DNA of 64,000 nt from an uncultured virus (IMG/VR IMGVR_UViG_3300020421_000013) (taxonomy: Duplodnaviria > Heunggongvirae > Uroviricota > Caudoviricetes > Crassvirales): IMG/VR virus record IMGVR_UViG_3300020421_000013. The stretch is one strand, 5' to 3'. Below the pieces are notes generated by a model. The model did not search any database. It was not told where the DNA came from and saw only the letters and a program-made list of their open reading frames with translations. Every line of letters starts with the position of its first letter. Position 1 is the stretch's first letter. This document shows positions 1-40,665 of this stretch, in pieces. Made by a program: the position numbers and the translations under genes.

Positions 1-68
1 TACTGAGGAACAGATGCATATCTATTACCCCCTCTTGATCCAGTAAATCTTGATGGTCTTCTAGCCAT
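1..68 (-). CDS. 5' end of a virion/ejected protein gene running off the window (MARRPSRFTGSRGGNRYASVPQ...)
   Basis: ATG at 68, frame open to position 1; follows the 99..719 gene on the same strand. Confidence 0.55.
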   Translation of the reverse strand, partial: MARRPSRFTGSRGGNRYASVPQ

Positions 69-98
69 TCTTTTCTTCTTTTTGAAGTTTAGTCATTT

Positions 99-719
99 TC
101 ATCCGCGTCCTAAACCCTGAGGATATAAATTTGTTCGTTTTTTCTCAGAGACAGATGAACTATCATTTACTTTTTTTTTTGGAGTTATATCGCCTGTCTT
201 TCCAGCTAACGCTTGTGTTCTCATCGCTCCAAAAGATCCAGCCATACTTCCTATGTCGGCTATTCCTGAAAAAGCTTGTTGTTTTGCGCCAGCAAGAGCT
301 GCACCTGTTTGAGCAATCTTACCTCTTAATCTAGCCTCTTTTACAGCTTCTATGTTTGCATCTTCTTGTGCAATAGCTATATCTCTATCATATGCCATAT
401 CGCCTAGTTGAGCTCCTAATTGCATATATCCTTTTTGTTGCGCTTGCCCTGCTGCCCCTAAACCACCTAGGACGCCCCTTACGCCAGCTTCTTTTAACTG
501 TTGGGTTTGAGTAGCAAATCCTGATTCAATACCTCTCTCAGCCAGCTCTACGCCTTGTGTAGGCAGTTGCATTCCCTTAAAGGCATTAGTAGGCAAAGCT
601 GATCTTTCAAGCTTGCGCATTTGTTCTTTTTGTTTTTTTGCCTGGACAAAACCATCGATTGTTTTTGCTATACCACCGATTGCTCCAATTCCTAATGATA
701 CGGCTGTAAATGGATCCAT
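99..719 (-). CDS. Gly/Ala/Gln-rich internal virion (ejection/pilot-like) protein
   Basis: 206 aa, hydrophobic Gly-rich N-terminus, helical composition; lies downstream of tail genes as podovirus ejected-protein genes do. Confidence 0.6.
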   Translation of the reverse strand: MDPFTAVSLGIGAIGGIAKTIDGFVQAKKQKEQMRKLERSALPTNAFKGMQLPTQGVELAERGIESGFATQTQQLKEAGVRGVLGGLGAAGQAQQKGYMQLGAQLGDMAYDRDIAIAQEDANIEAVKEARLRGKIAQTGAALAGAKQQAFSGIADIGSMAGSFGAMRTQALAGKTGDITPKKKVNDSSSVSEKKRTNLYPQGLGRG

Positions 720-733
720 CTAATTAATTTTTA

Positions 734-741
734 CAAATATA
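734..741 (-). promoter_or_regulatory. Bacteroidota-type -7 promoter element (TATATTTG)
   Basis: Matches TAnnTTTG in the gap just upstream of the ATG at 719. Confidence 0.55.
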
Positions 742-747
742 CAAATT

Positions 748-1716
748 TTACAGATTACTCTTCGTTACCTCCGAATCAACTGCAAATAACTCAACTGGGC
801 TTGTGCTGTCGTTAGTCATTCTGACGCTAGCATGATATCCCCTTACCCCTTCTGATTCTGCAGTTTGATTTTTAGCAGAAAATATGAAGTCTCCTATTGC
901 AGGTGCGCTAATAAAACTAGCGCATGTTATAGAATTAGCTGAAACAGCTGAAACTACTCCTATCTCAATAATGTTTGATATTTTATTATTTAAAATGTCT
1001 GCCTTCAAAAGTTTATCTCCAACAGACAGGCTTTCATTATTTATGTTTATTACAGTCAAAGAGATTGCTCCTGAATTAACAGAATCACAGACTCCAATTC
1101 CCTGTACACTCAACTTTTTATAATTAATCGAAGTGTTGTTATTCCTTATGTATGCATAATACATTTCTTCCTTCTTCTGGAAAGTTTCTTTATTTATAAA
1201 TCCTGATTCAGTATCAGTTGTGACAGTTATATTCCAATTATCACTACTACCTTCTGTTTTCATAGATCTAAACATTTTTACAGATGACGGATCTTTATTG
1301 ACAATAAATTCTATTTCAGTACTATAAGGTGTGCCATAAAAAACATTTCTTTCATTGCCATCTTTATGATGCTTGTATAACTGTCCACTCTTAAAAGTAT
1401 AAAAATCTCCGTTCATATTAACCATAGACTCAGGAATCCACGAATGAAATGTAGTCCACCCTTGCACATACTGACTGAAGCTCAATGTTTTGTCAGTGGC
1501 AAAAGTTTGTGTTGGATTAGGCATCGTCGGTGGTGTAGCGTTAACAATACTTTGTGTTACGCCAGATGGTAGCGTATTTACAGGACAATCATCAGACAAG
1601 TATTTTTCAATATAGTCTGGCTGTCCAGAAACATTAGCCTTAGTTACATTTGTTGGCTTGCCATTTATATATTTTCTAAGTGTTTTTACTACTCTATATC
1701 CTGATCTAAACTTCAT
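748..1716 (-). CDS. C-terminal part of tail nozzle/stabilisation (tail tubular B-like) protein
   Basis: TLSFSQYVQGWTTFHSWIPE..FYTFKSGQLYKH..KKEEMYYAYIR..GVRGYHASVRMTN..VELFAVDSEV resembles the C-terminus of this family. Confidence 0.65.
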   Translation of the reverse strand: MKFRSGYRVVKTLRKYINGKPTNVTKANVSGQPDYIEKYLSDDCPVNTLPSGVTQSIVNATPPTMPNPTQTFATDKTLSFSQYVQGWTTFHSWIPESMVNMNGDFYTFKSGQLYKHHKDGNERNVFYGTPYSTEIEFIVNKDPSSVKMFRSMKTEGSSDNWNITVTTDTESGFINKETFQKKEEMYYAYIRNNNTSINYKKLSVQGIGVCDSVNSGAISLTVININNESLSVGDKLLKADILNNKISNIIEIGVVSAVSANSITCASFISAPAIGDFIFSAKNQTAESEGVRGYHASVRMTNDSTSPVELFAVDSEVTKSNL

Positions 1717-1727
1717 AATATTAATTT

Positions 1728-4700
1728 TTAACTACACTGATTATAATTTGGTAAGGATGCTACATCTCCTACCTCGTCTACAAACCCATCTGAATTGACA
1801 TGTATATAATTTTTATTATACTTATCTGCAAAATCTAGCTGAACTGATGAATCTGGGTTTCCTCTTTTAAATATAGAGGACTCTTCAGTGTTTCTTGATC
1901 CATAATAACCTGATATAAATGGAGTGCCAGCATAATCAGCGTAAAACTTAAGACCTGTTATATTTATATCTCCAGAGCTAGTAAACATATCATGAGAACG
2001 TGAACTATTGAAAAAAGTGGGGACAGTATATCCATCAGAATTTCTTTTTGGAAAACAAAATATAACATCTCCATAAACAGGCAAACTTCCATTTATAGAT
2101 TTAAAATTTGCGTTTCCAGTTCCTAATGTTGTTCCACCAGAATACATACCTAGTATATGAGTAAAAGTATACCCAGAAGGTGTTGATAATATAGGTCCAT
2201 TTACTGGATCAAAAAGATACTCTATTGATTGTCCAGAAGCAACAGCACCTGGTCGATCACCAACTGTCAATTCAGCTCTAGAATATATTTTAAGGTTGGT
2301 AGCTGCATCAGTTCCTGTTGCATCTGTTCTCCAAAATCCATTTACATACACTTTAGGAATAAATCCATAATACAAGAAAGCATCCCTAACAATATAGTGT
2401 CCGAGTATTGTTAATCCTGAAGTTCCAAAAGAACCTGACACAAGAGTTCCATTATTTGCTGGGTTTGGGACTGAAGATGTAGGCGCAGGACCCATATCAA
2501 ATATACCCTGATAAGTTGTATACTGTTGATTCGACACTGTGTTTAAAACAACTGGAAGAGTTTTACTTAATACAACTATATCAAATACTCCGTCAAATTT
2601 GCGCTGAACTCCATTACCAGTTGTAAATACAATAGAAAATGGGTTATCAGAGTAAACTTCATAATAGTAACCTTGATTATTTGGAGCTTGTGTAAGGGTT
2701 GTTCCTGAAGGAAGTGTTGGTGTTGTTATTGTTGTAAATATCCCTGTGTTTGAAATTGTTGGTGTTGGAGCTGGCGGTATTATAGTGACGCCAAAAGCGT
2801 AGTCTGTTAGTCTCTGTGAATGAGATATAAATTTTCTGTTTTCTTCTTTATCTATAAAAACACTTGATGTTTTTTTATATTTTTTTGTTGTATTATAATC
2901 GTATTCTTTTAAAATTGACCAATTATCTATAATGTCACTCACGTTAGCAGAGTAAGTTCCACTAATAATGTGACCATATGTGTGTCCTGGGGTCGTTCCG
3001 CTCCCTGTGTTGTGGAAAAAATATAATGGCGCATCTTCCCCTGGTAATCTAATATCGGTAAAAGCACCAGAAGAACCAGGCGTTCCGTTTGTAGTAATTC
3101 CGTCTGTGTATTGATTTGCATACTGTAGACCAGAAGCAGACTTTCTTGAAAATAATATTTGTTTGCCTGCATTAGATGTATCACTTTGATCAAATCTGAT
3201 AACACTTCCCTTTGGACCTGAAACAGCTTGATTTATTGCTGAATTACCGTCTATAACAAATAGAAAATAACCTGCTAAATTAGGATAAGCTTGCACTGTG
3301 ATAACTTTAGTCGTAACAGTGTTATAATCTGTTGCATCTGTCCATGATGAAGGAACTGTTCCTCCTAATCTAGTGTTTTCGCCTTTTATATTAACTTTCA
3401 TAAAAGCGTCAAAAAGACCAAATGTCGTAGTGCTTGATCCTGAAGGCACATTTCTGTGACCAGCAGCAGATGTGCTTGTAATAGCAAATACATTTCCATT
3501 TTGTTCGTACAGTGCAGGGTGGTATTCTGGATAAATATAACTATCACCTGTTATGCTATGAGTTGCACTTATTGAGGGAATATTATCTACAGACCAATTA
3601 ATTCCGTAATTCCAAGATATAGCGTATTCATTTGATCCTGTATAAATACATAATCCATTGTCTAATATTAAAAATGGTATATTTCCTTGATTAGCAGCAG
3701 TAGATTGCTGTAAATAATATGTTTCATGTGTGTTAAAAAAGTCAGTATTTTGATTAGCTGTAGATGTTCCGCTTAATCCAGCTATAATTGGCTTTATCAC
3801 ACAATTATCATTAGAAGTATTATTGTCTTGACTTGGAAAATATCTATATAACACAGAGCTTGTAACTGAAGCATTGTTATGATTTGTAAAAGTAATTCCG
3901 TCCCATCTCCATATAAACAAATAATCATATTCAATACTTGCGTATATTCTTGATTTATTAAAGTTATGTAGAACCGTTCCTGTCCCTTGTCCCTGTCCTC
4001 TTGAAGTAGTTAATTGTCCAAAAAAATCTGCATTTCCTGATTTTGTTTCATCAAAATCTAATATAGAAAAAGAAACTGCATTATCAATTGATTTAGCTAG
4101 AAACAATTTATTGACTGCTGAAGATAAAGGTCCAGCTATTCCGTTGCTATTATTAAGCATGCATAATGCATACCATACATGGTTACCACTAGAGTTTACT
4201 CCAGCGTAACAAAAGTCCTCTATATATGTTTGTCTTCTAAAAGCAGCTAGTGATTGATTGTGCCCAAATGTTGCAACAAGTTGACTGTCTGTAGGATTAA
4301 ATTGACATATTTGAAAATTAACCCCATCAGTTGATCTAGCTAATGTTCCTTGTCCAATTTGACCATCTTGTACAACTGATAAATAAATGTTGTTTTCTTT
4401 TTTTGAAAAAGAATAGGTAAGTGGATTATTAAACCTGCTTTTTAAAGCAAAATTATGAGCTCTTGTTTTTGAATGTATAACCTCTTGATAAAGACTAGTT
4501 GATCCAGTACCCACATATTCACAATCGTCTATTTTTATAACATTTAATGCATCATTATCTTCAATAGAAAAATAAGAACTAGATGTATAAGATACTACGC
4601 AACTTTCTTCATATCTAATCCAATTTTTTGTAGATCTAAGACCGTCATCAAATATCATGCTTGCTGTACCAAAATCTCCTGAGCAAGTTACTGTTATATC

Positions 4701-5312
4701 GCCCCAGTATATTGTTTTGGTCCCTGTATAAACAGAAGTAGAAACACTAACTGTTTTTGAATATTGTCCTGTCATAGATAAACCTGTACCAGATGTGTGT
4801 AAACAAAACGCATCGTTTTCATTGTCTATAAACCAAGCATATGTCTGCTGTGCTAGTGCTAAATATAAAGGATCAGATCCATAAAATGTTGTTGCGCTGT
4901 AATTAGTTATTGGCTCAAAAAAGTTGAATGAAGGAACCCCACCTCTCATAACAATATACTCTGAGGTGTTAGCACATAAATATTTTATTTTTTCTACATG
5001 TAGATTTAGTGTGATCTCGTTAGTGTTATCGTCAGAAGGATTTAAGTTTCCTGCTGCGTATTCAAGATTTATATTAAATGTTTGTGTGCCATGTATACCA
5101 TTTCCGTTTCCATCAGCTTCTCTATGGTCAGTTCCTGTTGTGATAGCTATAGGAGTGTTGTCTCCTGTTAAGTTCCATTCATCACCATTAATAGTTAGTA
5201 TGTCGGGATTTTGAATCATAGCGTATCCGTCTTTCACTTTAATAGTATATACACCAATATTTCCAGAAGAGTTTTCTGCTTTTGTTACGGTCTGTAGAAG
5301 CTGTATTGCCAT
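1728..5312 (-). CDS. Large beta-rich putative virion surface protein with Asp-box (BNR)-like motifs
   Basis: 1194 aa, S/T/G/N-rich; RSTDGVNF, KSIDNAVSF, SWNYGINW; degenerate cupredoxin-like segment. Confidence 0.55.
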   Translation of the reverse strand: MAIQLLQTVTKAENSSGNIGVYTIKVKDGYAMIQNPDILTINGDEWNLTGDNTPIAITTGTDHREADGNGNGIHGTQTFNINLEYAAGNLNPSDDNTNEITLNLHVEKIKYLCANTSEYIVMRGGVPSFNFFEPITNYSATTFYGSDPLYLALAQQTYAWFIDNENDAFCLHTSGTGLSMTGQYSKTVSVSTSVYTGTKTIYWGDITVTCSGDFGTASMIFDDGLRSTKNWIRYEESCVVSYTSSSYFSIEDNDALNVIKIDDCEYVGTGSTSLYQEVIHSKTRAHNFALKSRFNNPLTYSFSKKENNIYLSVVQDGQIGQGTLARSTDGVNFQICQFNPTDSQLVATFGHNQSLAAFRRQTYIEDFCYAGVNSSGNHVWYALCMLNNSNGIAGPLSSAVNKLFLAKSIDNAVSFSILDFDETKSGNADFFGQLTTSRGQGQGTGTVLHNFNKSRIYASIEYDYLFIWRWDGITFTNHNNASVTSSVLYRYFPSQDNNTSNDNCVIKPIIAGLSGTSTANQNTDFFNTHETYYLQQSTAANQGNIPFLILDNGLCIYTGSNEYAISWNYGINWSVDNIPSISATHSITGDSYIYPEYHPALYEQNGNVFAITSTSAAGHRNVPSGSSTTTFGLFDAFMKVNIKGENTRLGGTVPSSWTDATDYNTVTTKVITVQAYPNLAGYFLFVIDGNSAINQAVSGPKGSVIRFDQSDTSNAGKQILFSRKSASGLQYANQYTDGITTNGTPGSSGAFTDIRLPGEDAPLYFFHNTGSGTTPGHTYGHIISGTYSANVSDIIDNWSILKEYDYNTTKKYKKTSSVFIDKEENRKFISHSQRLTDYAFGVTIIPPAPTPTISNTGIFTTITTPTLPSGTTLTQAPNNQGYYYEVYSDNPFSIVFTTGNGVQRKFDGVFDIVVLSKTLPVVLNTVSNQQYTTYQGIFDMGPAPTSSVPNPANNGTLVSGSFGTSGLTILGHYIVRDAFLYYGFIPKVYVNGFWRTDATGTDAATNLKIYSRAELTVGDRPGAVASGQSIEYLFDPVNGPILSTPSGYTFTHILGMYSGGTTLGTGNANFKSINGSLPVYGDVIFCFPKRNSDGYTVPTFFNSSRSHDMFTSSGDINITGLKFYADYAGTPFISGYYGSRNTEESSIFKRGNPDSSVQLDFADKYNKNYIHVNSDGFVDEVGDVASLPNYNQCS

Positions 5313-5322
5313 AATTTATATT

Positions 5323-8300
5323 TTAAGGAAGCGTGTGGTCTACTTTTGAATTGTTGTTTATACTTATGCTAAATGTTGCTTGTGCGTCTCTAGTTGCGTC
5401 TAATGGAAAAGCATCTTGTGAATCGGGCACCCCATCATTATCATCGTCAGTATCTATAAAGTCAGGTGTACCATCACCATCTGTATCTGTAGGCGTATCA
5501 GTTGCGTCTAGCGGATCTGAACCAGCTGCTATTTCATCAGCATCTGATACACCATCATTATCGTCATCTGTGTCGTAATAATCTATTACAGTGTCGCTAT
5601 CAGTGTCTGTTGGTGTATTTGTTTGATTTTCAGGGTCTGTAGGAAATGAGTCGCTGCTATCAGGTGTGCCATCGTTATCATCGTCTGTATCTGCATTGTC
5701 CCCAGTACCGTCACCATCAGTGTCTCTCGATTCATTTGGATCTAGAGGGAATCCATCTTGCGTGTCAACAACCCCATCGTTATCATCGTCTGTATCTGCA
5801 TTGTCTCCAGTTCCATCTCCATCTGTATCTGTATTTTCAATAGGATCTAGAGGGAAAGCGTCTGAAGTATCAGGAGTTCCATCTCCATCATCGTCTGTAT
5901 CTGCGTTATCACCAGTTCCATCACTGTCAGTATCTAAGGATTCTGCTGGATCTAAGGGAAATGCATCAGTAGCATCAGGCACGCCATCCCCATCGTCATC
6001 GGTGTCTACAAGGTTGTCTATACCATCTCCATCCGTATCTAAAGACCTGTTAGGATCAGTTGGGAAATCATCAGTTACATCTGGCACACCATCATTATCG
6101 TCATCAGTATCAGCGTTGTCACCTGTTCCATCCCCATCTGTATCAAGTGTTTCTGTAGGATCTAGAGGGAAAGCGTCATTAGTGTCTGGCGTACCATCAT
6201 TATCATCATCTGTGTCAACAGTGTCATCTATATTGTCATCGTCACTATCTGTGGTTCTAGATGGGTCTGTAGGAAAATCATCAGAAGCGTCTGGTACACC
6301 GTCACCGTCGTCATCAGTATCTGCATTGTCTCCAGTTCCATCGCTGTCAGTGTCTGTTGTTTCAATAGGGTCATTTGGAAAAGCATCTTGCTGGTCATTT
6401 ACGCCATCCCCATCGGTATCAGCGTTTGTAGAGCTTGTCGATGTAGGAGGACCTGTTTCTTGACTATCTGTTATTCCATCATTATCATCATCTGGATCAT
6501 GTATATCAGGTATTCCATCACCATCTGTGTCAGTTGTTATTTCTTCTTCTGGATCTGTTTGTGTTGCGTCTGTTAAATCTGGTATTCCATCTCCGTCATC
6601 ATCGGTGTCTACATTATCACCTATTCCGTCTCCATCTGTGTCAGTTTGCTCTGTTGGATCTAGTGGGAAGGCATCAGTAGCATCTGGTGTGCCGTCTCCA
6701 TCATCATCAGTATCTAAAGAATCAACTGTGCCATCACTATCTGTATCAGTACTATCATATAATATTTCGCATTCTACCTCATCCTCTCTCCACTCTTCTT
6801 GTGTGCCTTTCATAGATATGCTTACTTGCCTGTCTCTAGGGTCGTATCCAGCAATAACAGACCTGGGGTTGTCCATTGAAAGATTGTCATTGAAAAAGTC
6901 AATCATTCCAAAATCAGATATTTGATTTATCCTATCTCCTGATAGTGCACAAACCACACGCCTTCTTTCGTCAACAAAATACACGACGCCCCCCGATAAA
7001 ATAACTGAAGATGGGTTTGCGCTTACTCCATATTCTCCACCAAACGCAATATCCTGTCCCAAAACACTTTTGGATTGAGAAACATTACCTGTGCCATCCG
7101 CGTTAAATAAAACGCTTTTGTTGAATAATAATTTAGAAACCCTATTCTCTTGGAAAACAACAAGGTCTGATTCTCTGGAAACTATCTTTGTAATGTCCCC
7201 AAAAAAATCATCCATATCTTTAAAATTAACTTTAGATAAGTTAAATTCATTTAAACCATTATACTTTGTGGTTTGTGAATAAACATTACTATATGTAAGA
7301 GAGGTTGTTCTGTTGTTTTGTTTGTAGTCTACTAAATTTACAGATGGTCTGTTTTGTAATTCAAAGAATTTTAATAAAAACTGATCTTTTATTTTATAAG
7401 ATTCTATACAATTACCCCAAGAAAAAACATTGAAAAAATCCAAGGTAATACTTGCAGGAGTGTTATGTGTTTGGCTTACGTCTACATCATCTCCGAATAC
7501 CACTGTAAAATTTCCACTAGAATTTGAAAAAAAACCAGTTCCACTAACATAATTTGTTGAGTCCATTGGTAATGCAGAAGGGCTATTGTTGAACAAAGTA
7601 ACTCTTGTGCCTCCAGATATATCATTCCTTTGGAAGTACTGAACTGCAATTGTTAGAGTGCCGCTTGCTTGTGATATCTTTAGCTCTTTGCCGTTACCAT
7701 TACCAAAATTTGCATTGTTTGGTCCGCTTCCAACAGTAAAATAATTTGTAAATGCTGTATAAGAATCTGTGTCAAAAGCCATTTGAATCCTATAACCAGT
7801 AGCTGTAAAAGGGTTCGAGGAAAGTGATGGGAAATTATTCCAATTATCGCTATCTGTTATGTTAGTAGTATTTACATACCCTATTGTGTTTACTACACTT
7901 AGATTAGTAGACCCAATAGATAATACCGATGTGTCTTGTGGAACTAATCCAGAAGCAACATCTCCAGATTGATGGTATCCACCTGTTATTGAGTATGTTC
8001 CAGGTACTTCATAAAATATTTCGTCATTCTTATCATCACCCCTTGTTTCTAAAGTGACGATGTCTGATGATTGCCTTTTGAGAAAAGATATGGATGAATC
8101 AATTTTAACTCTTTTTGCTAAATCGTTTTGTTGCTCATGCTCTGATCTCACTATCATCAACAAATCGTCGTTAGAGCTTGCAGTTATATTGGAGCTGTTT
8201 AAACCATATGTTCCTCTTAAGAAAAATATTCTATCTTCATCTATGTCAGCAGTTAAAGTTGCTTTTGCTCCACTTTCGTGATACCATTCTTCTAAATTTT

Positions 8301-10482
8301 CATAATCTGCATTAGAGGTAAATTCATGCGTTACAAATTGATTGCCCCTATTATATTCATCATATTGAAAATTAATGACTGTTCCCAGAGGTATTTGTTC
8401 TTCAGCTTTTGTTCCTGACTGAAAAGTGGCAAAACCTCTGCTGTATCTAGGATATGAAAATGTTTGTGGTCTTGCGTTTACAACCCATCTATCTCCCAAG
8501 GTGTGACCAGTTGCAGACGCAAAATCTACACTTAAGCCTGTTCCTGGAATTGATATGGGAGTCCCAACTGTAATTGACTGTGTTGCTGTTGTTGATCCTG
8601 TATTAGCATCATTATCAAGGGTGTTTACAATAGTTGTAAAAGTATCTCCTGCTGGATTCACTGCATCTATCTCTATTGTTATTCTTGAAAAAACACTTGA
8701 AGTTGTGTATGATCCTGAAATACTTACATCTGTTTCAACAGCACTACTTCCTACTACAGGATAAACAAAAGGTCCTTCAAAGTAAGCTGCGCTTCCCGTT
8801 TGTGAGTTGGATAAAGGATCACTCCTACCATTGCCACTATCGTCATAATCAGAGAAAGATGTTAATTCATAATCTTCTCTTGATATTGAAAATCCAACAG
8901 GCTTTATTTTCATGTATAAACCTTGCTGCTGAGCAATTTGTGGTTGACCTGAAGCAGGATAATCATCTGATTCTAAAAAGTTTCTTTCCTTTAAGCTTAT
9001 TTCTAAAACCTGTGTTTCAACAAGCCCTGTTTTTTGCCCTCTAGTATCCGCTTTTACTACTAAAAAATCACCTTCTTTTACTTTATCCTTATCACTACCA
9101 TTTAATTGTATGTAAGTGAATCCTGTTTCATTGTCTTCATAAAATATAGCAGGACATATAGTTTCGTGTCTTCCCTTGCTTTGTTTTACGTAAAATCTGT
9201 AATATTTTGCAAACTGAGGAGCCAAGTGTGACACATCTACAGAAAATGTATTTTTAGTTTTTGATGCGCTTATAGGAACAAACTGAGATGCGTTTTGTGA
9301 TGTTAATACTGTTGTTGATCTCCCATAGTCATCTAAATACACCATTCCTATTTCATAATCAACATTTGTTTTAATGCTTTTTTCTGCATTAGGAAAAGTG
9401 ATTGTAGATGTATTTAAGTTTGTAGTGATGTTTGGTACAACTGAATCACCATTTGCGTCTATAAGATTAAAATTCTCTTTGTAGTTTGCATATACCAGCC
9501 TATTTCCAATAAGTTGTTGTGTTTGGGCAGTCAATGGCACATTGTCATAAACCCTAAGAAGTTCTGACTCTGCTAAAACTTTAAATACCTTATTGTTTTT
9601 AAAAAGGTATGTATTGTTTGCGTTGTTAGATAAATTTTGATTCTTCTTGTTTATTGTTTCTATAACATAAATGTTTGGAGAGTTGCTTTCTTTAAATAGC
9701 AAATCTATTTCCACTACATTTTTTGAACCTGTATTGTATTCTACTGTTACATCACTGTATCCATTAACCATTGCAGTATTAAGTCCTACAGAAAAATCAA
9801 TTGAAAACGTGTTTGGGAAAAACCCTATTTCTGAAAAAGGCGATATAGCACTGTATTCGCCATGTTTATATTTGTATCTATATGAAAAATATAAAAACCT
9901 TTCCTTGATGCTGTTCTCTAAAGCATTACTATTTCCTAGTGTTATACTGGGTGGACTCAACGGTGGCTGCTGAATAACATCTAAATCATATTTAGTATAT
10001 GTGTTTGCGTCTGTTATCTTAGCAGATTCTACCTCTACTCTTCTCGGCGGGTTAATTCCGTCAGTAAAAAATATAAATTTCTTGTTGTTGTCAATGTCTA
10101 TAAGAAGATTTGACTGAATAAAATTTGTTTTGTAAAAATTAAGAACATTTTCTTTCCAAGCTCTAGTGTCCTTCAAAACAAAAGTAGAAGTGTTATTATC
10201 CTTGTCGTATTCTGCCAAGTAACTTCCCGCATCAGATCTTACAAACCAATATATTTTATTGTTTGCATCATCAGCAATCGAACCAATACATACAGGATTT
10301 GCACCAAAGTCAAGCTGACTTAGGCCTTCATTTGAAAGGCTGTTTTCTAATGCGCCGACATCAGATCCTGAAGATCCAATAACTTTTACATTTAAAGCAT
10401 CTCGAAACTCCCCTTCTTGAACTAGTCTCTCGTCGAGATCCTTGTTCATTTTTCCAGTAGAAAAAAGGCTCTTTACCTTCAT
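5323..10482 (-). CDS. Tail nozzle/stabilisation protein N-terminal part fused to thrombospondin type 3-like Ca-binding repeats
   Basis: 1719 aa; GKMNKDLDERLV..EFRDALN N-terminus, FSYRYKY..EYSAISPFS, GNRLVYANY, NGLNEFN, GEYGVS; C-terminal DxDxDG repeats. Confidence 0.75.
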   Translation of the reverse strand: MKVKSLFSTGKMNKDLDERLVQEGEFRDALNVKVIGSSGSDVGALENSLSNEGLSQLDFGANPVCIGSIADDANNKIYWFVRSDAGSYLAEYDKDNNTSTFVLKDTRAWKENVLNFYKTNFIQSNLLIDIDNNKKFIFFTDGINPPRRVEVESAKITDANTYTKYDLDVIQQPPLSPPSITLGNSNALENSIKERFLYFSYRYKYKHGEYSAISPFSEIGFFPNTFSIDFSVGLNTAMVNGYSDVTVEYNTGSKNVVEIDLLFKESNSPNIYVIETINKKNQNLSNNANNTYLFKNNKVFKVLAESELLRVYDNVPLTAQTQQLIGNRLVYANYKENFNLIDANGDSVVPNITTNLNTSTITFPNAEKSIKTNVDYEIGMVYLDDYGRSTTVLTSQNASQFVPISASKTKNTFSVDVSHLAPQFAKYYRFYVKQSKGRHETICPAIFYEDNETGFTYIQLNGSDKDKVKEGDFLVVKADTRGQKTGLVETQVLEISLKERNFLESDDYPASGQPQIAQQQGLYMKIKPVGFSISREDYELTSFSDYDDSGNGRSDPLSNSQTGSAAYFEGPFVYPVVGSSAVETDVSISGSYTTSSVFSRITIEIDAVNPAGDTFTTIVNTLDNDANTGSTTATQSITVGTPISIPGTGLSVDFASATGHTLGDRWVVNARPQTFSYPRYSRGFATFQSGTKAEEQIPLGTVINFQYDEYNRGNQFVTHEFTSNADYENLEEWYHESGAKATLTADIDEDRIFFLRGTYGLNSSNITASSNDDLLMIVRSEHEQQNDLAKRVKIDSSISFLKRQSSDIVTLETRGDDKNDEIFYEVPGTYSITGGYHQSGDVASGLVPQDTSVLSIGSTNLSVVNTIGYVNTTNITDSDNWNNFPSLSSNPFTATGYRIQMAFDTDSYTAFTNYFTVGSGPNNANFGNGNGKELKISQASGTLTIAVQYFQRNDISGGTRVTLFNNSPSALPMDSTNYVSGTGFFSNSSGNFTVVFGDDVDVSQTHNTPASITLDFFNVFSWGNCIESYKIKDQFLLKFFELQNRPSVNLVDYKQNNRTTSLTYSNVYSQTTKYNGLNEFNLSKVNFKDMDDFFGDITKIVSRESDLVVFQENRVSKLLFNKSVLFNADGTGNVSQSKSVLGQDIAFGGEYGVSANPSSVILSGGVVYFVDERRRVVCALSGDRINQISDFGMIDFFNDNLSMDNPRSVIAGYDPRDRQVSISMKGTQEEWREDEVECEILYDSTDTDSDGTVDSLDTDDDGDGTPDATDAFPLDPTEQTDTDGDGIGDNVDTDDDGDGIPDLTDATQTDPEEEITTDTDGDGIPDIHDPDDDNDGITDSQETGPPTSTSSTNADTDGDGVNDQQDAFPNDPIETTDTDSDGTGDNADTDDDGDGVPDASDDFPTDPSRTTDSDDDNIDDTVDTDDDNDGTPDTNDAFPLDPTETLDTDGDGTGDNADTDDDNDGVPDVTDDFPTDPNRSLDTDGDGIDNLVDTDDDGDGVPDATDAFPLDPAESLDTDSDGTGDNADTDDDGDGTPDTSDAFPLDPIENTDTDGDGTGDNADTDDDNDGVVDTQDGFPLDPNESRDTDGDGTGDNADTDDDNDGTPDSSDSFPTDPENQTNTPTDTDSDTVIDYYDTDDDNDGVSDADEIAAGSDPLDATDTPTDTDGDGTPDFIDTDDDNDGVPDSQDAFPLDATRDAQATFSISINNNSKVDHTLP
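5385..6760 (-). repeat. About 13 tandem ~35-aa TSP3-like repeats (DTDGDGTGDNADTDDDNDGVPDxxDAFPLDP)
   Basis: Counted directly in the translation; ~105-nt periodicity in the DNA; boundaries approximate. Confidence 0.9.
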
Positions 10483-11330
10483 TATTTAATCCACTTATCC
10501 TTACCTCTGAGCCTTTGTACTAGATCATCTATATTGATATTCATTAACTTAATTTTGGCGTTTCTAAGCTTTGCAGAAGTTGATTTTTTATATCTTCTAA
10601 CAATATACTCCTGTACACCAAACTTTCTGTCTAAAATCTCTGATTGTAGATAACTGTACATGTAATCTTCAGCAAGTTTGTTAATTTTAATTTGATCGTC
10701 AGTAGTTCCAAAAAGACCATCAGAAACATACTCTAATATCACTATATCTCCTTCTGTGAGATGAGAACTGAATTTTACAAACCCAGCTTTTTTATCTACT
10801 AAATATGTGCCATTTTTGTTTGCAGATGCCGTATCCATACCAAATCTTCCACCAGTATGTTCGTCTTCCAGAGCGTCAACATCAACTTCTAAATGACTTG
10901 ACGACATTCTAGTATTTGATATACTATCTGTCTGTTGTCTATTACCATTGTCGTCAAATGTGTAATCTGAACTTGAATCCTGTAAAAAAGCATCAGGCAA
11001 AGCGTTTTCTGTATTCTTAATTAGAGGATGCAAACGACCATACTTGTCTAATATAGAGGCTTTTACCAATTGAACAAAGTCTTCTGGCATAACTATTTTT
11101 AATGAAGAACCTAATTCAAATTCTAGTTTTTGAGTTTCTTTCAAAGCATCATAACTTAATTCTTGTATACCTCTTTTTGCATGATGAAGAACTTGATAGC
11201 GAGGAATATCATTTATAATTTTATCATCGCCCACATTCATTAACATGAAATTATTTATGATGTCCTTCAATGACACATATTGGTATTCGCCATGTCTGGC
11301 ACTATCGGCATAGTATTGTTGTGAGCTCAT
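10482..11330 (-). CDS. Tail ring/adaptor (tail tubular A-like) structural protein
   Basis: 282 aa; YQYVSLKDIINNF, HAKRGIQELSYD, ILEYVSDGL, LRGKDKWIK; lies between capsid and nozzle genes. Confidence 0.65.
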   Translation of the reverse strand: MSSQQYYADSARHGEYQYVSLKDIINNFMLMNVGDDKIINDIPRYQVLHHAKRGIQELSYDALKETQKLEFELGSSLKIVMPEDFVQLVKASILDKYGRLHPLIKNTENALPDAFLQDSSSDYTFDDNGNRQQTDSISNTRMSSSHLEVDVDALEDEHTGGRFGMDTASANKNGTYLVDKKAGFVKFSSHLTEGDIVILEYVSDGLFGTTDDQIKINKLAEDYMYSYLQSEILDRKFGVQEYIVRRYKKSTSAKLRNAKIKLMNINIDDLVQRLRGKDKWIK

Positions 11331-11334
11331 CTAT

Positions 11335-12039
11335 CTAAGTAAGGTTTTCTTTTTCAAATTCTTTCGTGTCTTGATTTTCAGCTACAGCTATCACGTTTTC
11401 TTCTCTAATACTAACACCAGCATATCGTAATATTTTAACAATAAGTTGTGTCTCCTCTTCTGGGTGTAGCTCAAAATCTTGATGATCAGAAGCACTTGCA
11501 TTATAAATTGGATCTCCTCCAGATGTAGTGAGGTATGTCCATTTTGGATCAGCAGGCGTTTTGTAATAAACCATACTTAAAACATCTGTGTTTAATAAAG
11601 TAGGTGACACCTCTATTTCATTAGCAAAACGCGTAAAAACTTTATAGGTAGCAGATGGTGAGGATAAATTTGCTTGATTTAAAAAATAAAACTCTGTTTT
11701 ATCAACCTCCTCAACGATATCTGTGTTACACAAAACATTGTTGACCATATACATATCAGAAGGTAAAGTGTAATTATTAGTCGATCCAACCTGTGTAAGG
11801 TTAGACTTTTTAGTGAATATATCAAGCTTGTGTGATATATCCTTCACTTCATCAGTAGCCCCTCTAGAACCTCTTCGATTATTTTTATTTAATACTGCTT
11901 TTCTATAGTTATCAAAATATTCTTGGAATATTTCCAACTGCGCAGCCTTCGCATAAAGATTAAATTCAAGAGGCGATATGTAACCGCTATTATCCTTGTC
12001 GATAATTGAAAGTACGGTATTTCTAACGCTATTGATCAT
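11335..12039 (-). CDS. Tail ring/adaptor structural protein
   Basis: 234 aa; GYISPLEFNLYAKAAQLEIF, PADPKWTY, DFELHPEE. Confidence 0.65.
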   Translation of the reverse strand: MINSVRNTVLSIIDKDNSGYISPLEFNLYAKAAQLEIFQEYFDNYRKAVLNKNNRRGSRGATDEVKDISHKLDIFTKKSNLTQVGSTNNYTLPSDMYMVNNVLCNTDIVEEVDKTEFYFLNQANLSSPSATYKVFTRFANEIEVSPTLLNTDVLSMVYYKTPADPKWTYLTTSGGDPIYNASASDHQDFELHPEEETQLIVKILRYAGVSIREENVIAVAENQDTKEFEKENLT

Positions 12040-38819: not shown

Positions 38820-39073
38820 TACTCCTTAACAACAATCCCACTTTCAAGTAAAACCAATTTGATTTCACCTGACATTCTCATTTCTGAAGAAGCCATTTTA
38901 TCATAGTACACGTTGTCACCAGGACTAACTTCTTTTACCTTTGCCCCCACCGAGTCAACAACCCCCCTGACATATCTAACATTTTTATCCGTCTTGCTTG
39001 ACAAGATAACACCCCCTGATTCTATCTCGTCTTTTATTGGAGTTATAACAATGTATTGACCTAATGCTTTCAT
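38819..39073 (-). CDS. groES: Co-chaperonin GroES
   Basis: MKALGQYIVI..SGGVILS..GVVDSVG..VSPGDNVYY; coupled to groEL. Confidence 0.85.
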   Translation of the reverse strand: MKALGQYIVITPIKDEIESGGVILSSKTDKNVRYVRGVVDSVGAKVKEVSPGDNVYYDKMASSEMRMSGEIKLVLLESGIVVKE

Positions 39074-40665
39074 GCTCTAATATTTGTGATTACGCAATCA
39101 GTTGTTAAAATTTCACAAGACACGCTAACTGCATTTTCAACTACATTTATGGTTACTGTTGTAGGGTCGAGTATTTTTTCTTTAAACATATCAACTACTT
39201 GGTTTGTTATAGCGTTATATCCTTTTTTATAATCTTCTTTTCCAACTTCTTTTGTAACAACAGTAAAGGCTTTATCTTTCATATCTGTGTTGGACATGAT
39301 TGTGGTTAAAAGCGATGATGTAGATGCACAAAGGCAAAACCAACCTTTTCTATAGGAATCATCCCAATCGGAAAATTTTTCCTGTTCTACATGAGATCTC
39401 ATTTTTCTTCCTATATGAAGAAGTGCTGTACCTCCACCAGGAACCACGCCCATCTTCATAGCAGCACGAGTAGCACTTATTGCATCATCCACTCTGTCCA
39501 TCTTCTCTTTCATCTCCACTTCAGTAGAAGCTCCTACATGTACTGTTGCAACTCCTCCAGTCAACTTCGACAGTCTATCTCTCAAGTGCCACTCATTATC
39601 TGCTTCTTTCTCGTCAGCTATTTTTTGCTCTAAATGTTCTTTCAGTTCTGATATCACCTTCTGATCTTTTGGCTCTACAAACAAAACTGTTTCTCCTTCT
39701 GAAACAACAACCTTATCTGAAGATCCTAAATATTCTGGTGTGATCTGACCGAAGTCGCTACCTTGTGCTTCTGAAAAAACTTTCGATCCAGTCATACTTG
39801 CTAGATCTTGTAAAAGTTCATCTCTTTTGTATCCTACACCAGCAGGCTTTACCACACAAGCTTTAAACCTTCCTTTGTTGTTGTTGAGAATCATTGTAGC
39901 TAAAAATTCATCTGATGTGTCAGCTACGATAATTATTGACTTACTGTTCTCTGCGCAATATTGAAGTATCGGCAGAATCTGCTGAGCACTTTGTATTTCA
40001 GATGAACAAATAAAAATAAGGGGAGACTGAGCAACAAATTCACGTTTATTAATATCCGTGACTAAGTGGTGGGATGCCCAGCCTCTATCAATTTTAGTTC
40101 CTTCTTTGATGGTTACATAGCTTTCTTCGTTGTAAGATTCCTCTACAGCTACTACTCCATCCTTTCCAACCTTTTCATATGCTTCTGCAATTAACTTTCC
40201 AATCTTTTTATCGTTGTTTGCCGATATTGAAGCAACTGCTACTAGGTCCGTTTTACTTAATTTTTTATTCATCTTCTTCAAAGAATCAACAACATAATCT
40301 TTAGCATCATGCATACCTCTTTTAAATTTATGAATGTTGGCAATTTCACTTCGAGTAGTCAATGAGATGATTGCGTTACTTAGCACAATGGAGGAGGTAG
40401 TTCCATCTCCAGCCCGTAGGGCTGTTTTTTTACTAGCCTGCCTAACTGTATTCATCGCTAAGTTTTCAATCGGATCTGTGAGCGTTATGCTTTCCGCAAC
40501 CGTTATACCATCTTTTGTAACGTGTGGTCTCCCGTGCACATCCTCTAGTATAACTGTCTTACCGTTTGGTCCTAGAGTAGAACCCACAGCTCTATTTAAT
40601 TTAGATATACCAGATTTCATTTTAATCCAGGCATCGTCCTTAAAAGTTAATTGTTTTTCTATCAT
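39070..40665 (-). CDS. groEL: Phage chaperonin GroEL
   Basis: TLGPNG, TKDGITVA, AGDGTTS, ISANND, EMKEKMDRVDDA, GVVPGGG, ILDP motifs; no GGM tail. Confidence 0.95.
   Translation of the reverse strand: MIEKQLTFKDDAWIKMKSGISKLNRAVGSTLGPNGKTVILEDVHGRPHVTKDGITVAESITLTDPIENLAMNTVRQASKKTALRAGDGTTSSIVLSNAIISLTTRSEIANIHKFKRGMHDAKDYVVDSLKKMNKKLSKTDLVAVASISANNDKKIGKLIAEAYEKVGKDGVVAVEESYNEESYVTIKEGTKIDRGWASHHLVTDINKREFVAQSPLIFICSSEIQSAQQILPILQYCAENSKSIIIVADTSDEFLATMILNNNKGRFKACVVKPAGVGYKRDELLQDLASMTGSKVFSEAQGSDFGQITPEYLGSSDKVVVSEGETVLFVEPKDQKVISELKEHLEQKIADEKEADNEWHLRDRLSKLTGGVATVHVGASTEVEMKEKMDRVDDAISATRAAMKMGVVPGGGTALLHIGRKMRSHVEQEKFSDWDDSYRKGWFCLCASTSSLLTTIMSNTDMKDKAFTVVTKEVGKEDYKKGYNAITNQVVDMFKEKILDPTTVTINVVENAVSVSCEILTTDCVITNIRA

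Follow-up and report, generated by a model that had tools for sequence, protein, structure and literature searches.

The muzzle of crAss001, gp44 (PDB 7QOK), a tail nozzle of the T7 gp12 / P22 gp10 class, is one chain of 1371 amino acids (aa). In the passages of its paper that deal with the tail, variation in muzzle length is described as due to insertions, reported in the crass and IG2 domains, and tail parts are stabilised by disulfides, inter-chain ones being documented among them (PMC10172136). In Pseudomonas phage A1002 two chains, gp42 and gp39, rebuild one propeller and platform by strand complementation as seen by cryo-electron microscopy, and according to the section on its split nozzle the C chain holds two incomplete blades and the platform and carries an N-terminal extension for docking (PMC13730344). 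Here we analyzed the nozzle locus of an uncultured virus of the Crassvirales (IMG/VR record IMGVR_UViG_3300020421_000013; "the window" stands for the whole stretch of 64,000 nucleotides), in which two open reading frames (ORFs) of 1719 aa (N chain) and 322 aa (C chain) flank a gene for an 1194-aa protein, and in which a short strand of the N chain (the donor) and the start of the C chain (the acceptor) resemble two halves of one small domain. The explanation that we consider likely is a two-chain nozzle combined with a portable donor/acceptor docking module, which in this clade would act as a derived staple.

Both ORFs match gp44 profiles and the nozzle gene has the same place after the ring proteins; unlike gp44, the chain in the window is cut near the equivalent of gp44 residue 1199 and bears cargo at the new end. 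The same loop is split, likewise with cargo on the N chain, in Cellulophaga phage phi13:2 (gp120 and gp121; Pachyviridae) and in the Manatee Spring record MW202828, so the split nozzle is a further case of a known arrangement, and the phi13:2 split may already be present in the conservation tables of the crAss001 paper. The C chain of these two stands alone (241 or 267 aa; the 241 positions of phrog_18548 model such a chain) and, in contrast to the window, neither has a donor or an acceptor; their genes are recorded only as 'structural protein'. Like A1002, the window has a split nozzle whose C chain starts with an extension, and homology fits an assembly of the same kind. The A1002 extension is a long rope that binds fibre dimers, whereas that of the window has 75 residues, acceptor and linker, and no rope-like fibre dock of several hundred residues is found on its C chain. 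A1002 belongs to another host phylum, no small Cys-paired module figures in the section on its split nozzle, and the likeness is one of arrangement.

A nozzle encoded by two ORFs

An earlier note, made from the letters of this DNA, had proposed that the 322-aa ORF is the missing C-terminus of the nozzle. When the coordinates were re-derived, the three ORFs and the motifs quoted in it, all on the minus strand, agreed: GYDPRDRQVSISM begins at N-chain residue 1212 (nucleotide 6849), EEWREDEVECE corresponds to residues 1229-1239 (nucleotides 6798-6766) and TLSFSQYVQGWTTFHSW begins at residue 77 of the 322-aa ORF (nucleotide 1488), the W..C motif lying ~5.05 kb from the start of that ORF. Comparison with the crAss muzzle profiles bore the proposal out. 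The last 247 residues of the N core matched PF25731 (crAss_MUZ) with 33.4 bits against a cut-off of 27, a family that was not listed when the whole 1719-aa chain was used as the Pfam query, and the 322-aa ORF matched PF25729 (crAss_MUZ_C) with 47.9 bits, again against 27; moreover, the family profile of this ORF aligned to gp44 residues 1199-1283 (7QOK, E 4.5e-10). At the level of sequence, both ORFs are thereby confirmed as parts of one crassvirus-type muzzle/nozzle. The GYD and TLSF..GW.SF motifs, said in the note to lie normally close together in one chain, are 6-21 residues apart in seven unsplit orthologues; here the whole propeller and the ring-joining domain are shared out between two ORFs. 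By analogy with the unsplit orthologues and with phage A1002, the two chains very probably assemble into one nozzle, where the 1719-aa chain would give most of the propeller and the distal domains and the 322-aa chain the last strands and the ring-joining part, both reassembling by strand complementation.

Contigs of an independent study (run X3) cover both stops (1324-2050 and 5080-5698) with 0 differences, and the three-gene layout recurs in three further loci (L008, L021 and L027), so the stops are real and not errors. Among 39 homologues, 14 are proteins of 315-331 aa with the same N-terminus; longer homologues of the C chain amount to only three proteins, a weak guide to the frequency of the fused form.

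To place the locus among its relatives we used 97 distinct loci holding both muzzle parts, excluding Maribacter phage Panino (L003), exact duplicates and rows with <150 aligned residues. The muzzle is split in the same loop in 90 of them, cultured phi13:2 included, in a sample that leans to split forms because it was collected using stand-alone C chains and the acceptor. Six annotated records comprise three unsplit muzzles (phi38:1, Gundel_1 and elemoA), two split in this loop (phi13:2 and MW202828, the latter with an intervening gene) and one broken elsewhere (Panino). The N chains of split relatives extend into 7-1503 residues of varied cargo, 0-6 genes precede the C gene, both genes lie 0 to 8.6 kb apart, and in many relatives a separate protein of ~247 aa consists of the muzzle C core alone. 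The earlier note had counted against itself the case of relatives that routinely encode the two parts separately with no insert; separate coding did prove to be the norm of the group, with an insert nearly always present. For this group of aquatic Bacteroidota podophages the annotation can thus be corrected, the 'missing' muzzle C-terminus being the next small gene.

Other breaks were seen as well. The Panino muzzle (L003:8001-11914) is annotated as two coding sequences with the break ~100 residues upstream of the loop, either another split site or a sequence error; it was first scored as split in this loop and was removed because the break lies elsewhere. In L171 (2039-9823) and L181 the muzzle is cut at a second site within the C-terminal domain, the last piece having 108 aa and the donor forming the last residues of the N chain. 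In another clade (L041, L054, L082 and L084) the muzzle C chain has an extension of a different kind, ~95-190 aa long, Cys-bearing and starting with MCDC.

Donor and acceptor, two halves of a small domain

The motifs W..D..C of the N chain and SGY..TLRKY..CP of the C chain had been regarded in the earlier note as halves of one small domain, and they are indeed contiguous in other proteins and co-occur when split. With a profile of the 48-residue extension, 74 representatives were retrieved out of 1.84 billion; the acceptor profile was built without five long ones (P0056, P0067, P0090, P0097 and P0103), regarded as chance matches to repeats, and without six copies that are internal or have an extended start. 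Most acceptor representatives start with the module, followed by Thr/Pro stalks and unrelated domains. In several proteins the module is internal and in tandem, with W-x6-8-C ahead of the internal copies, and an alignment of P0093, P0116, P0077, P0096 and P0104 contains the intact domain in cis. The pattern W/F-x6-8-C stands just upstream of 14 of 22 distinct internal copies, compared with 5.4% of all sequence windows in the same proteins, and one intact copy starts with WRP..., as do several muzzle donors. AlphaFold2 (AF2) models of the intact repeats reached a predicted local distance difference test (pLDDT) score of ~80-90 and display small all-beta units with strands at the W and first C positions.

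The module matched no Pfam, NCBIfam or PHROG family and, by sequence, none of the solved structures. A model of P0093 gave nothing significant in PDB or BFVD fold searches; the wide fold search with the same model returned no module match, its hits being taken up by the low-confidence C-terminal part, and for this reason the lack of a fold match does not show a new fold. Pilin was absent among the sequence or fold matches, the module being barely probed by the wide fold search. The ESM Atlas gave no usable match for the extension or for P0093, and no annotated phage was matched by tblastn with the 49-aa extension; as query for a genome scan, P0093 alone was positive in 0 of 19 candidates and the alignment in 7 of 47. 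In P0116 two intact copies precede a DUF5977 domain (PF19404), known from Bacteroidota stalk proteins, which there spans residues 199-255, a stretch separate from the module. In the literature searched on crassvirus muzzles, split nozzles, donor strands and DUF5977, with most subscription journals outside the search, neither the module nor this particular split is described.

We propose that an all-beta domain of ~60 aa occurs as two separate pieces. One, the donor, has 10 residues with the W-x6-C motif and belongs to a scaffold; the other, the acceptor, has 46 residues and forms the N-terminus of a second protein, and its fold would be completed by the donor. From homology and co-occurrence, we judge that donor and acceptor bind each other with good probability, and on the same grounds an inter-chain disulfide between the two invariant cysteines appears fairly probable. 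In most relatives the acceptor would head accessory stalk proteins and the number of donor repeats would set the docking capacity; in this clade the acceptor gene just upstream would have been fused to the muzzle C chain, and hence the pair would staple the N chain to the C chain, either within a subunit or between ring neighbours. In donor-strand complementation of pili, in cohesin-dockerin and in tag/catcher systems a short strand from one chain completes a fold elsewhere, and repeated docking sites set valence. The module may work like donor-strand complementation, although we do not assign it to that class; unlike in those systems, the donor is internal or C-terminal, the acceptor N-terminal, the domain has ~60 aa and the lock is presumed to be a disulfide.

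In a tree of the 97 muzzles both halves are present in 35 rows, neither in 62 and one alone in 0; the donor was at the same offset in 44 of 44 loci in which an acceptor was found, muzzle end included, many of them overlapping earlier contigs. Acceptors on the C chain form one nested clade (16 rows, support 99), surrounded by 19 rows in which accessory genes carry the acceptors, often as the immediate upstream neighbours of the C gene. The earlier note had the pair clamp the two fragments together, and this part has to be modified: since 55 of the 90 split rows lack both halves, and the second half is on accessory genes in those 19 rows, the pair cannot be credited with holding split nozzles together, and its being needed for one was rejected. 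A clamp is likely here, but as a derived extra staple, those 55 rows managing without it. The pair would mostly dock accessory proteins, the fusion to the muzzle C chain being a derived state of this clade. As the tree root is only a midpoint, the order of events was read from the nesting; the simplest history would be that of an appendage docking system whose last acceptor gene was fused to the C chain.

Of 21 loci outside the muzzle clade, 17 have a donor in the gene that precedes the first acceptor gene, with 1.9 expected. The four misses correspond to a W-to-C variant, a donor lost to the third position of the pattern, a cut contig and a gene with its own donors. Among 14 later loci scanned with the fixed pattern, an upstream donor was present in 9 of the 10 with an N-terminal acceptor, while two of four internal copies were intact. 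As to numbers, two donors accompany two acceptor genes in 12 loci, and three accompany three in L202, one of the nine. The scaffolds vary: the second split site of L171 and L181, where the chain ends in the donor, a distant muzzle (L168), a scaffold gene beside a baseplate wedge gene (L165), and further loci in Flavobacterium, Chitinophaga and Sphingobacterium assemblies.

On balance, we favour the view that Bacteroidota phages and prophages share a portable, covalent plug-and-socket locked by a disulfide, derived from a split tandem stalk domain and acquired independently by nozzles, by proteins of the baseplate region and by further tail scaffolds; appendages would be as many as the tags allow, tag-bearing catchers could chain into multi-gene fibres, and here the device would serve as a staple between the two nozzle chains. 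The module provides a rule, readable in sequence, that assigns unannotated proteins to the virion scaffold on which they hang and gives their number, useful in a group where most tail genes are without function. It also suggests a way for these phages to swap surface appendages with the DNA gate untouched. If the binding is confirmed, it is a natural tag-and-catcher pair of very small size that exists in numerous sequence variants.

Several proteins (L165:7704-8804, L172:5175-5957, and others in L203 and L204, together with P0093 and P0096) have an acceptor at the start, followed by donors or intact repeats; such proteins could link gene products head to tail into a fibre. P0050 is a 118-aa protein with an acceptor followed by the end of a muzzle N chain and a donor, which probably arose as a chimera or by deletion.

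A second, different split domain was detected in sister clades, with WDY..LCY..AC.C in the muzzle tail and, at the start of the following gene, YYID..F.TATAV..D..LT..APDG.Y. Both halves are present in eight loci (L005, L055, L058, L061, L069, L088, L090 and L091), the second half only in two (L053 and L094) and neither in 84, and weak internal copies have a Cys-bearing strand ahead. This suggests that split-domain docking arose twice on the same muzzle tail.

Points against the proposed docking module and other explanations

Several observations weigh against a docking module. The rows with both halves fall in one clade (36 rows, support 98), so that the 35 of 35 represents roughly a single gain and a single loss and does not amount to 35 tests. 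The donor pattern was written after some of the 21 loci had been seen, 12 of these 21 come from one phage group, and five of the nine held-out successes are relatives of groups already seen. Donors and acceptor genes also occur at 5-6:1, 4:1, 3:1 and 2:1, L117 has one donor-pattern match for two acceptor genes, and L244 and L236 are without an adjacent donor. Moreover, the AF2 models of the repeats were built from an alignment of only five rows, Cys-Cys distances not being reported.

Among the other explanations, the one that survives best is that the halves are a relic of gene fission, an intact tail domain having been cut once or several times with its pieces persisting nearby without binding each other, or with each binding something else. 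In two distant split muzzles (L167 and L231) the same tail contains the domain intact and in cis, plausibly the ancestral state, and fission is therefore a likely origin; the usual position of the donor in the gene just upstream is also what fission would leave. That the pieces are no more than relics is nevertheless unlikely, considering that W and C of the donor and C of the acceptor are invariant while the flanks of the alignment diverge, that donors have multiplied up to six times without the acceptor, and that bare acceptor proteins of 46-47 aa (L103 and L104) are retained along with multiple donors. The halves also remain paired across up to 8.6 kb of intervening genes, and in L032, a re-fused muzzle nested in the donor clade, both were lost together.

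We regard as similarly improbable that the halves pair non-covalently or with another partner, the cysteines binding a metal or a neighbouring domain, or the acceptors using donors on some other virion protein. Phages assemble in a reducing cytoplasm, which speaks for a non-covalent contact, and the adjacent donor is absent at 8 of the 22 internal acceptor copies, a point for another partner and one that also weighs against docking by adjacent donors. A metal or another bond is made less likely by the presence of a single conserved cysteine in each half with no conserved histidine, and by one internal copy (L177) that has lost both cysteines together; against another partner, the structural genes of the window hold one acceptor, on the C chain, and one donor, just after the cut, which is the sole match to the donor pattern there.

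That RNA splicing, recoding or protein trans-splicing joins the ORFs into a single chain has a very low probability. Introns and inteins often interrupt crassvirus genes (PMC7886860), but in window positions 1-12000 Rfam gave no match up to E 0.1, no intein family or Hint domain was among the Pfam matches, and every ORF starts at an ATG of its own, behind a similar A/T-rich leader, for which reasons intron or intein joining was rejected. The variable N-to-C gene distance argues in the same direction, as does, weakly since contigs only were used, the lack of a joint between N core and C gene among the contig joints listed. A sequencing or assembly artefact or a pseudogene, whose probability is next to nil, was rejected given the coverage of both stops with 0 differences, the N-terminus shared by 14 of 39 homologues and the layout conserved in many contigs.

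Cargo at the cut and neighbouring genes

In the two-chain nozzle the cut would leave a fresh C-terminus exposed on the surface of the nozzle, and the group would use this end to display variable cargo. In the window, as the note had described, the N chain runs into TSP3-like repeats and then a stop: the repeats matched PF02412 with 80.2 bits against a cut-off of 25, 22 DxDxDGxxD motifs were counted, and sequence matches include COMP and thrombospondins, making a calcium-bound stalk likely by analogy with the family. The features of the locus are collected in Table 1.

Table 1. Features of the nozzle locus in the window, with their coordinates.
Feature	Position	Strand	Matches and remarks
Two virion structural genes, ring/adaptor-like	10482..12039	-	SU10_adaptor, weak and below cut-off
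Muzzle/nozzle N chain, 1719 aa: core, donor strand, TSP3 stalk, C-terminal tip	5323..10482	-	phrog_14478 (5e-230), PF25731
Muzzle core of N chain, residues 1 to ~1222; ends at the propeller loop that is also the split site in relatives	6817..10482	-	
Donor strand ('plug'), residues 1229-1239; W1231-x6-C1238 is the first part of the small domain	6766..6798	-	
TSP3-like acidic repeats, ~22 motifs	5392..6756	-	limits approximate
C-terminal tip of N chain	5326..5391	-	
Variable accessory protein, 1194 aa	1728..5312	-	
C chain ORF, 322 aa	748..1716	-	
Acceptor ('socket'), residues 1-46 of the 322-aa ORF, ends C44-P; sole copy in the window	1579..1716	-	
Pro/Thr-rich linker, ~30 aa, from acceptor to muzzle C core	1489..1578	-	
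Muzzle C core, by homology to gp44 the ring-joining part with the last propeller strands	748..1488	-	phrog_18548

The 1194-aa gene is mosaic. Compared with L008, the muzzle end is 96% identical and the 1194-aa protein only 36%, while with L021 and L027 the values are 72% and 79%, respectively; in run X11 two internal segments of the gene are replaced and the flanks retained (contigs from RNA runs, where they enter this comparison, are no evidence of expression). Eight distinct relatives with the same C chain have no 1194-aa gene and longer N chains instead. These comparisons, with the range of tails and intervening genes given above, support a loop that carries exchangeable cargo, the part of the display-slot idea of the earlier note that could be upheld; the TSP3 stalk and the exchangeable 1194-aa protein, whose variability is observed directly, are probably displayed there. 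The 1194-aa protein has no match in Pfam, PHROG or NCBIfam and is without an acceptor module; Asp-box-like motifs were noticed by eye, its AF2 model (pLDDT 35.6) was uninformative, and it is likely a tail-tip appendage or a receptor-binding protein.

The last 25 residues of the N chain are of two types, and in six distinct pairs these correspond to the two types seen in the 1194-aa gene. The tip could possibly be a docking strand for the 1194-aa protein, or both could be transferred together by recombination in the repeats.

The structural module of the window is of podophage type, with terminase, portal, capsid, two virion genes and then the nozzle locus. Given the ring/adaptor-like genes upstream of it, the nozzle gene is in the usual place for a tail nozzle, after capsid and portal, and the order of capsid, ring/adaptor and nozzle genes is also seen in cultured relatives. 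The nearest annotated records are Bacteroidota phages (Cellulophaga, Maribacter, Tenacibaculum and Flavobacterium; 33-39% identity), and the labelled sequencing runs that contain the stretch are marine. A phage-encoded GroEL (39070-40665) and replication genes sit elsewhere in the window.

In some relatives (L022:2355-8825, L023, L033, L031, L035 and L097) several further genes lie between the muzzle N and C genes, among acceptor proteins with Pro/Thr-rich stalks. They encode a 2OG-Fe(II) oxygenase, an O-fucosyltransferase, a GlcNAc-transferase, an NAD-dependent epimerase, a carbamoyltransferase and a conserved 300-aa protein (phrog_4417), and they may possibly act in glycosylation of virion appendages.

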